Below, one piece after another: positions 254 to 9,939 of a stretch of 64,000 nucleotides of DNA. The translations under genes and the position numbers were made by a program. The stretch comes from Escherichia phage T4. The notes under the pieces were generated by a model, which was not told the DNA's origin, ran no database searches, and worked only from the letters and a program-made list of their open reading frames with translations. The stretch is taken from sequence record NC_000866.4. One strand, given 5' to 3'. Each line of letters starts with the position of its first letter. Position 1 is the stretch's first letter.

Positions 254-912
254 CATTGCATTCCGATTACGAAAAACTGTGGACGAGTAATACCACCAAT
301 GCAACATTTACTATTACAGCAGTAGTGTACGGTGTCAATATGGACACTATAAATCTTATCCATATCAGGAGATTTGACAGGCTCATCAATTATATACAAA
401 ATTCGCGAAAGCTTTAAACCTCTGAACTTGCTTCCTTTATTACCAATAAAACTGCGTACAGAATCAGTAAATAAACGAAAACGTATATCATCATTAGAAT
501 AACGCGAAAATTCCTTTTTGATGTTATTTGCAGAAATTTTAGCATAAGCTGAAGTATTAGAAAGAACAATAACTGTTCCGCCATCATACAACCAATTAGC
601 AGCAAAGTTAGTCACAGCAATTGATTTACCGGATTGACGTCCACCATCTAGTCGAAGTGTACAATACTGTTTAAGTAAGTCTTCAAATGGCGGGATATAT
701 TCGTTTTTACAAATTTCTTCTACTCTAGCATCAGAATGGTGTGTAAAAGCATTCATCAGGGATAGATAAGGACCAGTTAAAAATGTTCTCATTTCTTCTC
801 TATAAGCTCTATAAGTTTGGGCCATTCCGTGGCACATGAATTGTCCATTTCTGTATTTACCCATTACCGCGCTTGGGCTCGACCTTATTACAGGTTGGCG
901 GGAATCCCTCAT
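253..912 (-). CDS. P-loop NTPase-like hypothetical protein
   Basis: 219-aa ORF from the track; Walker-A-like GGRQSGKS; same orientation as and immediately downstream of denV. Confidence 0.55.
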   Translation of the reverse strand: MRDSRQPVIRSSPSAVMGKYRNGQFMCHGMAQTYRAYREEMRTFLTGPYLSLMNAFTHHSDARVEEICKNEYIPPFEDLLKQYCTLRLDGGRQSGKSIAVTNFAANWLYDGGTVIVLSNTSAYAKISANNIKKEFSRYSNDDIRFRLFTDSVRSFIGNKGSKFRGLKLSRILYIIDEPVKSPDMDKIYSVHIDTVHYCCNSKCCIGGITRPQFFVIGMQ

Positions 913-938
913 ATAATCATGAGGTCCAGGTTGTTCCC

Positions 939-1355
939 TTATGCATAAATCGCCTTACCGTAGTATTTGTACCAAGTAGGACGTTGTGCAATTTTTTCAT
1001 CTAAACGAGCTTGTGATATAGCAATAGAAGCTTCATGGGGAATATAATCACCACGGAATTCCTGAGGAATATCACTAATATCCTGGACTGTAGTATCCTT
1101 GATATTAAAACCACGTTTTAAACATTCAGCTATAAGCTCAATTTGACGTTTACGTAAGAACTCGAGCTTATCGTAAAAGAATGTAACATGACCTGCGCCA
1201 AGGATAAAAGTAGGACTGATTTTAAAATCACGAACACGTTTACCGTTAGCAACATGCTTACGAACTGCACCAAAAACACGCGGCAATTCACGATATTCAG
1301 CCATTAAGTGTTGGTCAGCCAATTCAGATACTAAAGTAAGGTTGATACGAGTCAT
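939..1355 (-). CDS. denV: endonuclease V, pyrimidine-dimer DNA glycosylase/AP lyase
   Basis: 138-aa ORF ([28 protein letters not shown]...) matches my recollection of T4 endonuclease V. Confidence 0.95.
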
Positions 1356-1384
1356 TTTAGTGTTCTCCTGTAGTTGATAGGTCT

Positions 1385-1413
1385 ATAGTATCATACCTAC
1401 AGGAGATGTAAAC
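1385..1413 (-). promoter_or_regulatory. early promoter (sigma70-like, -35 GTTTAC, 17-nt spacer, -10 TACTAT) for denV
   Basis: minus-strand GTTTAC at 1413..1408 and TACTAT at 1390..1385; followed by conserved leader CTATCAACTAC and SD AGGAG. Confidence 0.55.
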
Positions 1414-1415
1414 TG

Positions 1416-1718
1416 TTATTTATCTTTAATTGCTTTAGCTGCTTCGATAGCCGCTTGCTGAAGGTCATCCATAGACATGCCGAACTTAGAAGCAAAGTTA
1501 TCAATTTTCTTTTCGACGGCATTCAAAGGCTTGGCCTGTTTACCTTCATTAGCGCCAGGAAGAGCGAGAATACGCTCTCTGTCAATATAAAGGCTTACAA
1601 GTTTCTTACGGTCTTTATCGGGCAAATCATGAAATGAATGGGCCTTTTTATTTACAGCGGCTTCTAATTTACCTGCGCCCACTCGCGCTTCGGCAATAAA
1701 TTCTTGATATGTTTTCAT
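1416..1718 (-). CDS. ipII: internal protein II (packaged head protein)
   Basis: 100-aa ORF starting MKTYQEFIAEA (capsid targeting sequence shared with ipIII); position between denV and ipIII as in T4. Confidence 0.9.
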   Translation of the reverse strand: MKTYQEFIAEARVGAGKLEAAVNKKAHSFHDLPDKDRKKLVSLYIDRERILALPGANEGKQAKPLNAVEKKIDNFASKFGMSMDDLQQAAIEAAKAIKDK

Positions 1719-1769
1719 ATGTTTCCTTTAAATGTAAATATTTTTATTATTCTATCCTAGAATTGTGAT

Positions 1770-1799
1770 AATATATTCACAATTCTAGGAGTTGTAAAC
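1770..1799 (-). promoter_or_regulatory. early promoter upstream of ipII (-35 GTTTAC, -10 TATATT)
   Basis: minus-strand GTTTAC at 1799..1794; -10 overlaps the centre of a 14-bp perfect inverted repeat (1755..1768 / 1777..1790). Confidence 0.45.
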
Positions 1800-1833
1800 T
1801 GCTTTTATTTAAGCGTCCCAAGTATAAGCTTTA

Positions 1834-2415
1834 TTAAGAATTACCACGGGCTGCATTAGCAACGGCGTAAGCGTACTGAATATTAGCGTCTTTAAACTTA
1901 CCTTTAGAGGTATCTATTTCTGCCTTAAAGCCGCCTTTAGTCATAACATCGGCAAATTCTTTACGGAAAGCCATTGCATCAAGACCTTTCCATGATGATT
2001 TATGCTTGGCAAATTCAAGACCTGCGAAGTTGACAGCTTTAGCCAATTTATTATCAATGACCCATTTACCGGCTTTAGGCACAAACTTCGGGCCTTTCTG
2101 TTTAGAGAACAGTTTTAAATTCCAGCGGCGAAGGTCTGCATCAGCTTTAACAAATTCTGAGTCTAAGTTACTAGCAACAACATCTTCAATATGAGCAAAT
2201 TTAAGTCCGTCAACTTCAATATTTAAATCGGTACGCCAGCGAAGTCCTTCCCAAGCGAAGGCTTTAAAGTCGGAAGCCTTTGTAGCTAAGTACCGTTCAA
2301 TAGGAGCTGTTTTAGGGTCAAAGCCGTTTCCTGATCGGTAGGTCCACTCATCTTTGTTAATGCCTTTGGCCTTTACTACAGAAGCTTCGGCAATAAATTC
2401 TTGATATGTTTTCAT
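1834..2415 (-). CDS. ipIII: internal protein III (packaged head protein)
   Basis: 193-aa ORF starting MKTYQEFIAEA; 5' end and RBS lie in a 47-bp perfect repeat shared with ipII. Confidence 0.9.
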   Translation of the reverse strand: MKTYQEFIAEASVVKAKGINKDEWTYRSGNGFDPKTAPIERYLATKASDFKAFAWEGLRWRTDLNIEVDGLKFAHIEDVVASNLDSEFVKADADLRRWNLKLFSKQKGPKFVPKAGKWVIDNKLAKAVNFAGLEFAKHKSSWKGLDAMAFRKEFADVMTKGGFKAEIDTSKGKFKDANIQYAYAVANAARGNS

Positions 2416-2464
2416 ATGTTTCCTTTAAATATTTTAATTAGTAATTGTCTATTCAAGTAATTGT

Positions 2465-2498
2465 GAATATACTATCACAATTCCAAGAGAAAGTAAAC
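2465..2498 (-). promoter_or_regulatory. early promoter upstream of ipIII (-35 GTTTAC)
   Basis: minus-strand GTTTAC at 2498..2493; AT-rich -10 (ATAGTA/TATATT) 17-19 nt downstream; 8-bp inverted repeat AATTGTGA/TCACAATT around the -10. Confidence 0.45.
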
Positions 2499-2502
2499 AG
2501 CT

Positions 2503-3490
<988 letters not shown>

Positions 3491-6623: not shown

Positions 6624-6666
6624 TTTATTCTCCAAGTTATTTTCTGTATCAGTAGTTGATAGTTGT

Positions 6667-9328: not shown

Positions 9329-9514
9329 TTATTCACCTTTAGAAATTTTATCCATAACGATAGCAATTAAACCAATTAAAAATGCTACTACAAGTGAAAA
9401 CACATTTTCTGCTGTAGTTAATAATCCGCATATAAATCCAACAAACATTGAAAAACTAAAAGCAGAAGCAGAAATTGCAATAGCAACATTTCGAATTAAT
9501 TCACAGCGTTTCAT
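9329..9514 (-). CDS. hypothetical small membrane protein (T4 tRNA.4 position)
   Basis: 61-aa ORF with two hydrophobic helices; SD GAGGAG upstream; directly downstream of an early promoter. Confidence 0.5.
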   Translation of the reverse strand: MKRCELIRNVAIAISASAFSFSMFVGFICGLLTTAENVFSLVVAFLIGLIAIVMDKISKGE

Positions 9515-9542
9515 TTTATTCTCCTCAGTAGTTGATAGGGTA

Positions 9543-9590: not shown

Positions 9591-9878
9591 TTACAAAAGA
9601 TTTTTAGCAATAATCTTGAGATGTGCCGCAGAAATGTGTTTAGCTTTAAACAACGCAGTTTCTTCAGCAGGAGAGATAACGATTGTAGCACCATCCTTTT
9701 TAGCAGACCACCCATCACCTAGGTAAACAGTACCTTTGATTTCTTCGCCATCAACCAGACTAATCATTGGTTTACCTTCTCGTCCTTTATTTGCTTTAAT
9801 AACTTCAGAAGTAAGAGTAGCTTCGGTAATGGTAGAAACCGGGGTAGTTGTAGAAGTAAATTCTTTAAATGTTTTCAT
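9591..9878 (-). CDS. ipI: internal protein I (packaged anti-restriction protein)
   Basis: 95-aa ORF (MKTFKEFTSTTTPVSTITEATL...) matching T4 IPI as I recall it. Confidence 0.9.
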   Translation of the reverse strand: MKTFKEFTSTTTPVSTITEATLTSEVIKANKGREGKPMISLVDGEEIKGTVYLGDGWSAKKDGATIVISPAEETALFKAKHISAAHLKIIAKNLL

Positions 9879-9909
9879 TTTTATTTTCCTAATTAATTTT
9901 GATGAGGTA

Positions 9910-9939
9910 ATAGTATCACTACCTCATCAGTATGTAAAC
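9910..9939 (-). promoter_or_regulatory. early promoter for ipI (-35 GTTTAC, -10 TACTAT)
   Basis: minus-strand GTTTAC at 9939..9934, TACTAT at 9915..9910; 9-bp inverted repeat GATGAGGTA/TACCTCATC flanks the -10. Confidence 0.55.

Follow-up and report, generated by a model that had tools for sequence, protein, structure and literature searches.

The perfect inverted repeat directly upstream of the bacteriophage T4 denV gene, which encodes endonuclease V, is probably an RNA-level translational insulator built into the gene's own early promoter. In the model put forward here, RNA polymerase that enters from upstream would produce a read-through transcript carrying both arms of the repeat, in which the denV Shine-Dalgarno (SD) sequence would be sequestered by a hairpin with a predicted free energy near -18 kcal/mol, so that 30S subunits could not start denV. 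Transcripts begun at the embedded promoter would start at about A1378, within the loop, and would lack the 5' arm, so that their leader stays open and denV is translated. Synthesis of endonuclease V would then be limited to the time when the gene's own sigma-70 early promoter is active, and would be independent of the heavy transcription at middle and late times that serves the internal head proteins and the lysozyme encoded upstream. The insulator reading rests on sequence, predicted thermodynamics and conservation with covariation. As a model, the interpretation given in an initial annotation of this DNA, in which the promoter that made the message determines whether the ribosome-binding site is hidden, has support in silico and is backed by strong comparative evidence.

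Promoter and hairpin in the ipII-denV spacer

The analysis covered a 64,000-nucleotide stretch of the T4 genome (hereafter the window), of which positions 900-1900 match a T4 genome record with 100% identity. Published T4 coordinates of denV, 64939-65355 (PMC9697503 supplement), were used as the anchor for converting positions, such that T4 position equals window position plus 64000 and the window corresponds to T4 64001-128000. The T4 record used for annotation, OZ209023, carries a pipeline annotation without promoters. The strain behind this record is a mutant that differs from the window by small indels; beyond window position ~7900 the gene starts in its annotation are displaced by 1-38 nt, and exact matching left four starts, including that of e, unmapped. 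The table of gene starts was remapped onto the window to offset these indels. The genes and elements of the locus, in window positions, are as follows.

939..1355, minus strand: denV coding sequence (endonuclease V, 138 aa), start codon at 1355-1353
1416..1718, minus strand: ipII coding sequence, with its UAA stop codon (1418-1416) just 5' of the denV promoter and hairpin
2415..1834, minus strand: ipIII coding sequence
2997..2503, minus strand: e (lysozyme) coding sequence
1407..1413, minus strand: -35 region GTTTACA, in the form typical of T4 early promoters, with an A-rich stretch upstream
1397..1406, minus strand: 5' arm of the hairpin and anti-Shine-Dalgarno, UCUCCUGUAG, in the promoter spacer directly 3' of the -35 and 9 nt past the ipII stop
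1374..1396, minus strand: hairpin loop of 23 nt, containing the TG-extended -10 and the predicted start
1385..1393, minus strand: extended -10, consisting of TG (1393-1392), one base, and TACTAT (1390-1385)
1378, minus strand: A at the predicted start of denV's own transcript, the seventh nucleotide after the -10, placed by the sigma-70 spacing rule
1364..1373, minus strand: 3' arm of the hairpin, CUACAGGAGA, which holds the SD AGGAG

Read in mRNA sense, the first half of the spacer is AAA UAA(1418-1416) CA GUUUAC(1413-1408) A UCUCCUGUAG(1406-1397) GUA UG A UACUAU(1390-1385), and what follows UACUAU is AGACCUAUCAA CUACAGGAGA(1373-1364) ACACUAAA AUG(1355). The 10-bp repeat reported in the initial annotation is exact, with plus-strand TCTCCTGTAG (1364-1373) and CTACAGGAGA (1397-1406) separated by 23 nt. 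Since the genes lie on the minus strand, these become a 5' arm UCUCCUGUAG at 1406-1397 and a 3' arm CUACAGGAGA at 1373-1364 in the mRNA; because the element is a dyad, the arm sequences given earlier are identical on either strand. A sigma-70 scan likewise placed TACTAT (1390-1385), the -10 that the arms had been said to bracket, in the loop, and the SD assigned to the downstream arm was found there (AGGAG, 1369-1365, within 1373-1364). The distance from SD to start codon required correction, from 11 nt to 9 nt between the last G of AGGAG (1365) and the A of AUG (1355). A weak inner helix of 5 bp is predicted within the loop (1393-1389 with 1379-1375).

The scan identified a consensus match on the minus strand at 1412..1385, composed of TTTACA (1412-1407), a 16-nt spacer and TACTAT preceded by TG. 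T4 early promoters have the form UP/-35/TGn/-10 (PMC2988021), and the consensus of the promoter-early stem-loops (PeSLs) of phages T4 and PST is TTTACW-N17-TAYWAT (PMC4122927). No MotA box was seen by eye at the denV promoter. Transcripts initiated at the predicted start would carry a leader of 23 nt, AUCAACUACAGGAGAACACUAAA-AUG. A published primer-extension figure for denV displays stops at the promoter, with an ambiguous figure legend (PMC1702504); a literature search found no genome-wide T4 start-site map and no published denV transcript 5' ends or read-through translation rates. A further sequence, (C)TATCAACTAC, recurs just 3' of the -10 at the predicted starts of many T4 early cassettes (window 1374-1382, 9514-9540 and 6640-6660, and other T4 loci) and may, judging from this recurrence, be a conserved initial transcribed sequence. 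In the denV copy its CTAC belongs to the 3' arm.

The window contains nine perfect dyads with arms of 10 bp or more and a loop of 3-40 nt, compared with 4.07 +/- 1.82 expected from dinucleotide shuffles. The dyad by itself is therefore weak evidence, as such elements are only about twice as frequent as expected by chance; what goes beyond chance at denV is the position of the dyad and its conservation. The length of the loop, 23 nt, likewise counts against the insulator reading. A search of window 900-3100 against the curated RNA families of Rfam 15 returned no match at E <= 1. Valerie et al. 1986 (NAR 14:8637) are said to have remarked that stable stem-loops are possible before ipIII, ipII, denV and orf61.9, so the existence of the denV stem-loop is probably old knowledge. 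What appears to be new is the function proposed for it, together with its conservation.

Predicted masking of the SD and its conservation

Folding of the read-through RNA (1430..1330) bore out the stable pairing of the arms, as the hairpin is present in both the minimum-free-energy and the centroid structures. Alone, the hairpin has a predicted free energy of -18.0 kcal/mol (z = -4.4), and none of 200 shuffled sequences was as stable; by the same method the proven hairpin of e has -14.9 kcal/mol and that of segB -19.4 kcal/mol. RNA beginning at the predicted A1378, without the upstream arm, is predicted to be unstructured (0 kcal/mol), which would leave the SD free in the message from denV's own promoter, also as first proposed. 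Masking was measured as the free-energy cost of opening the ribosome-binding site from -18 to +5. The probability that the SD is paired was set aside for the short own transcripts, in which values of 0.3-0.8 arise from very weak alternative pairings. For denV, opening requires 12.5 kcal/mol in read-through RNA versus 3.2 kcal/mol in its own RNA, and when the upstream part was shuffled, 0 of 200 sequences matched the read-through value. The cost has a median of 6.1 kcal/mol (standard deviation 3.8) among 74 genes of the window, with e at 16.6 and segB at 18.7 kcal/mol.

The dependence of translation on the promoter of origin, to which the denV arrangement was originally likened, has been established experimentally for e, located 1.6 kb away, and for soc, 49, I-TevI and segB (PMC3014915, PMC2988022). 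Hairpins that mask the translation initiation region (TIR) and have an internal promoter are described for e, soc, 49 and I-TevI (PMC3014915), and TIR-masking hairpins also for I-TevII/III, segB and Aeh1 mobE (PMC2988022). As in the e, soc, 49 and I-TevI type, the SD of denV lies in a helix predicted to be stable on long transcripts, and a shorter, open RNA is predicted from its putative internal promoter; the masking hairpin of e lies in the same window (3000-3033) and is of comparable stability. In the known cases, however, the internal promoter is late (or middle) and masking delays a late function, whereas the internal promoter of denV is of the early sigma-70 type, which is predicted to restrict an early protein to the early period and to shield it from middle and late transcription coming from upstream. 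Since this promoter is early-type with a -35, and not late or middle, denV represents a variant in the temporal logic of masking hairpins. It is not in the lists of such hairpins given by two reviews from 2010 (PMC3014915, PMC2988022). If the reading is correct, the T4 device by which the promoter decides translation would extend to early promoters, with the opposite temporal logic.

Viral contigs were scanned with the denV protein, yielding 79 loci and ~30 distinct T4-like upstream regions, including those of Serratia phage CHI14, Pectobacterium phage PM2, Citrobacter phage CF1 and Erwinia phage Cronus. For T4-like denV genes with a recognisable promoter, opening the ribosome-binding site costs 10-25 kcal/mol in read-through RNA versus 1.6-4.6 kcal/mol in the own RNA, taken to start 6-9 nt past each gene's own -10. 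The upstream part was shuffled for 26 sequences; the observed cost was reached by 0-5 of 200 shuffles in 25 of them and by 14 of 200 in the remaining one (L035). All four SD bases, GGAG, have their pairing partner upstream in 29-30 of the 30 T4-like sequences. A MAFFT alignment of the sequences with the T4 arrangement (layout A, below) lost the register of the arms, and RNAalifold and pair counts were therefore not used; instead, arm partners were read from the minimum-free-energy fold of each sequence, with GGAG as the anchor. Read in this way, the arms form 20 distinct pairs, with 2-4 Watson-Crick pair types per flanking position (covariation).

The helix that masks the SD occurs in two alternative layouts, A and B, and in both the 5' arm lies upstream of the predicted own start. 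In layout B (L004, L011, CHI14, PM2 and Cronus) the 5' arm is formed by the last bases of the -10 together with the discriminator, and the 3' arm extends from the SD to the AUG. Nothing else is common to the two layouts than a paired SD and a 5' arm that ends at or before the predicted own start; loop length ranges from 8 to 33 nt across the relatives, and arm sequence and position also vary. The gene 5' of denV differs as well (ipII in T4, an e-like 3' end in L016, L017 and L021, and other ip genes elsewhere), as expected for shuffled cassettes, and the predicted masking travels with denV. The compensatory changes that retain the SD helix across several T4-like groups, as read from these sequences, provide the strongest support for the proposed masking.

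The denV homologues of jumbo phages (L027, L031, L032 and L037), which served as a negative control, show no masking, with costs of 3.8-6.1 kcal/mol that were reached by 23-184 of 200 shuffles. On these contigs of 345-378 kb, a G+C-rich hairpin followed by a U-run and containing the -35 (GGGTTGACTTCGGTCAGCCCTTTTTGCTATAAT) lies upstream of denV. This element looks like a combined terminator and promoter, which is another design.

Upstream transcription, protein timing and alternative explanations

Read-through into denV had been attributed to ipII. This is too narrow, as the early and middle promoters of ipIII and the two late promoters of e are also possible sources; any transcript entering from the ipIII or ipII early promoters, from the middle promoter inside e or from the two e late promoters would carry both arms of the dyad. 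The start site, the existence and amount of such RNA and the block to translation are inferred. A terminator scan of the minus strand found no terminator-like site between e and denV. The only late-promoter motifs upstream of denV are the two before e, at 3011-3031, with no further match to TATAAATA between these and denV. The MotA-dependent middle promoter PipIII starts at T4 66724 (PMC2988021), that is, at window 2724, inside e.

In a time-resolved classification of transcriptome and proteome data denV is assigned to early RNA and early protein, and ipII, ipIII and e to early RNA and late protein (PMC9697503 supplement). Since the ipII protein is late but the gene lacks a late promoter, late transcripts begun at the e promoters must extend to at least 1416, a position ten bases short of the hairpin. 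That denV does not behave as a late protein despite its late neighbours fits masking, and termination before denV would fit too. Masking could explain how a strictly early protein is encoded 60 nt past genes for late proteins with no predicted terminator between them. Additional information comes from the RegB endoribonuclease, which is inhibited by secondary structure (PMC1702504). In the denV[AU] mutant, RegB cuts the GGAG efficiently in vivo, in RNA from 3 min after infection (PMC1702504). As RegB is blocked by structure, this cleavage implies that the bulk of early denV RNA has an exposed SD, which is expected of transcripts from denV's own promoter.

The denV spacer also has the properties of a PeSL cassette: a stop codon lies upstream, an A/T-rich stretch precedes TTTACW-N16/17-TAYWAT with TG, a stem-loop overlaps this promoter, and an SD and an ATG follow. 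Here, as in PeSLs, the stem-loop overlaps the -10, with the 5' arm in the spacer and the -10 in the loop, and such cassettes are repeated around the variable internal-protein locus. The roles proposed for PeSLs are termination or attenuation of transcription from upstream and a part in the shuffling of cassettes (PMC2839356; PMC4122927). The papers on PeSLs treat the SD as a separate 3' module, whereas at denV the 3' arm of the stem is the SD and terminator features are absent; denV is not mentioned in one of these papers (PMC2839356). The denV case suggests a function for PeSL stem-loops, so far discussed as terminators and recombination sites.

One alternative is that the PeSL stem-loop attenuates or terminates polymerase coming from ipII and that its overlap with the SD is incidental, which we regard as unlikely. 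One stem-loop of phage RB49 cut lacZ read-through like a strong terminator (PMC2839356; PMC4122927), the ipI, ipII and ipIII cassettes have strong hairpins at the -10 without SD pairing, and the split between early denV and late ipII protein would fit termination too. The denV stem-loop resembles an intrinsic terminator in that it comes right after a stop codon, but it differs in having no U-tract 3' of the stem (T4 has ACACUAAAAUG there, relatives have UUAAAAAUG) and a loop of 23 nt. G-C pairs make up only 5 of the 10, and a consensus scan of the strand did not detect it; an intrinsic terminator at this hairpin was rejected for want of a U-run. In layout B, moreover, the helix reaches from the -10 as far as the AUG, with coding sequence beyond it, and what is conserved across lineages is the pairing of GGAG rather than a hairpin at a constant distance from the stop codon.

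Translational coupling has only a small probability. Under this explanation a ribosome finishing ipII would melt the base of the stem, and denV output would be proportional to ipII translation. The SD:anti-SD segment forms the stem's base, and the 5' arm follows the preceding stop codon by 9 nt in T4, where it is that of ipII, and by 6-9 nt in the other layout-A phages; as some of these arms begin 6-7 nt past the stop, a terminating ribosome could open the stem base, giving coupling and not a block. Established footprint values put the leading edge of the ribosome roughly at +12 to +15 relative to the P site. For a ribosome on the T4 message whose A site holds UAA, this edge would just touch U1406 and at most one pair would be opened. 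The masking is as strong or stronger in layout B, where the 5' arm is ~30 nt past the stop, and in L040 the nearest upstream stop is ~35 nt from the arm (by eye). The early timing of denV protein and the late timing of IPII also argue against proportional output.

A role in RNA stability or processing, in which the hairpin protects the 3' end of processed ipII mRNA or shields the GGAG of read-through RNA from RegB, is given a very small probability. RegB cuts GGAG in early mRNAs, structure blocks it, and the denV GGAG is resistant to RegB in vivo (PMC1702504). This resistance, however, is ascribed to the bases that lie 3' of the GGAG, and an A-rich graft at that place makes denV RNA sensitive in vivo (PMC1702504), from which it follows that the bulk of denV RNA is not protected by structure. 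Moreover, a protector of 3' ends need not include the SD in every lineage.

That the dyad is due to chance or is a functionless relic of cassette shuffling, or in a variant of this explanation a DNA-level protein-binding palindrome, is highly improbable: although ~4 perfect 10-bp dyads are expected per 64 kb and the internal-protein locus is prone to recombination (PMC4122927), 20 distinct arm pairs stay complementary across several T4-like groups, shuffles almost never match the observed masking, and the variable arm sequence, loop length and position argue against a protein-binding site. A protein operator at the denV dyad was rejected because the arms vary freely in sequence and spacing.

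Promoter hairpins of sibling and other early cassettes

The genes for the internal proteins have promoter hairpins of their own in the window:

1755-1790, minus strand: ipII hairpin in the ipIII-ipII spacer, a 14-bp perfect dyad TCCTAGAATTGTGA / TCACAATTCTAGGA with an 8-nt loop (-24.6 kcal/mol, z = -6)
2455-2485, minus strand: ipIII hairpin, a weaker AATTGTGA / TCACAATT pair
9900-9929, minus strand: ipI hairpin, a 10-bp perfect dyad UGAUGAGGUA / UACCUCAUCA around the -10 TACTAT (-18.4 kcal/mol; 13 pairs in the fold)

These three hairpins enclose the -10 and do not reach the SD, and the ribosome-binding sites of the genes cost 1.8-3.7 kcal/mol to open. Since the ipI, ipII and ipIII hairpins miss their SD, the SD pairing at denV is a specific addition to the family scaffold and not a by-product of it. 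Part of the denV dyad could be PeSL family heritage, as the hairpins that enclose the -10 in several T4 cassettes do not touch the SD. The ipII dyad surrounds the -10 of an early-type promoter, TTTACA-17-TATATT, with the SD ~35 nt past the dyad and unmasked (opening cost 3.7), and the ipI start, at 9878, is downstream of its hairpin. In L017, a hairpin with core arms AATTGTGA / TCACAATT, as at the ipII dyad, lies directly before denV and is extended to pair the SD.

When the entire T4 genome (loci L081-L085) was scanned for early-type promoters followed by a gene, 36 cassettes were returned. In 11 of the 36 the ribosome-binding site is predicted to be masked, with an opening cost of at least 10 kcal/mol in read-through RNA and at most 5.2 kcal/mol in the cassette's own RNA, and ten of these cost at least 12 kcal/mol; when the sequence upstream of the start was shuffled, 8.7% reached 10 and 3.3% reached 12 kcal/mol. 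The masked cassettes are located in OZ209023 at:

8147, 13116, 52808, 56854, 61663 (regB), 64270, 69538, 121985, 129206, 135230 (alc) and 165700

The masked set includes regB, alc, e.8 and a gene next to alt, and most of its members have an anti-SD of the CCUC or CUCC type right after the -35. It is conceivable, although on balance we doubt it, that this reflects a general rule of T4-like phages, under which many early cassettes would hold an anti-SD within their own promoter (in the spacer or in the -10/discriminator) and be translated only from their own transcript. We found no description of such a general rule. If the pattern were general (~30% of T4 early cassettes), it would help to explain the published discrepancies between the timing of T4 mRNAs and proteins, and early genes would be self-contained, insulated modules that are correctly regulated beside any neighbour after shuffling.

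Among individual members of the set, the gene next to alt (window 59032, minus strand) has an opening cost of 20.2 kcal/mol in read-through RNA versus 3.9 in its own, and e.8 (window 6623) has 12.0 versus 2.6 kcal/mol. The alc cassette (135230) and the cassette at 121985 have near-identical promoter-hairpin sequences. In another part of the window, two divergent late genes annotated as baseplate hub proteins (52428 on the minus strand and 52479 on the plus strand) have a common spacer, GCTCCTTTATTTATCATATTTATAAATAGAATAAAAGGAGC, which is palindromic and carries late-promoter motifs that overlap, one or more on each strand. The SD of each gene is the exact complement of that of the other, and opening would cost ~14 kcal/mol if an RNA spans both.
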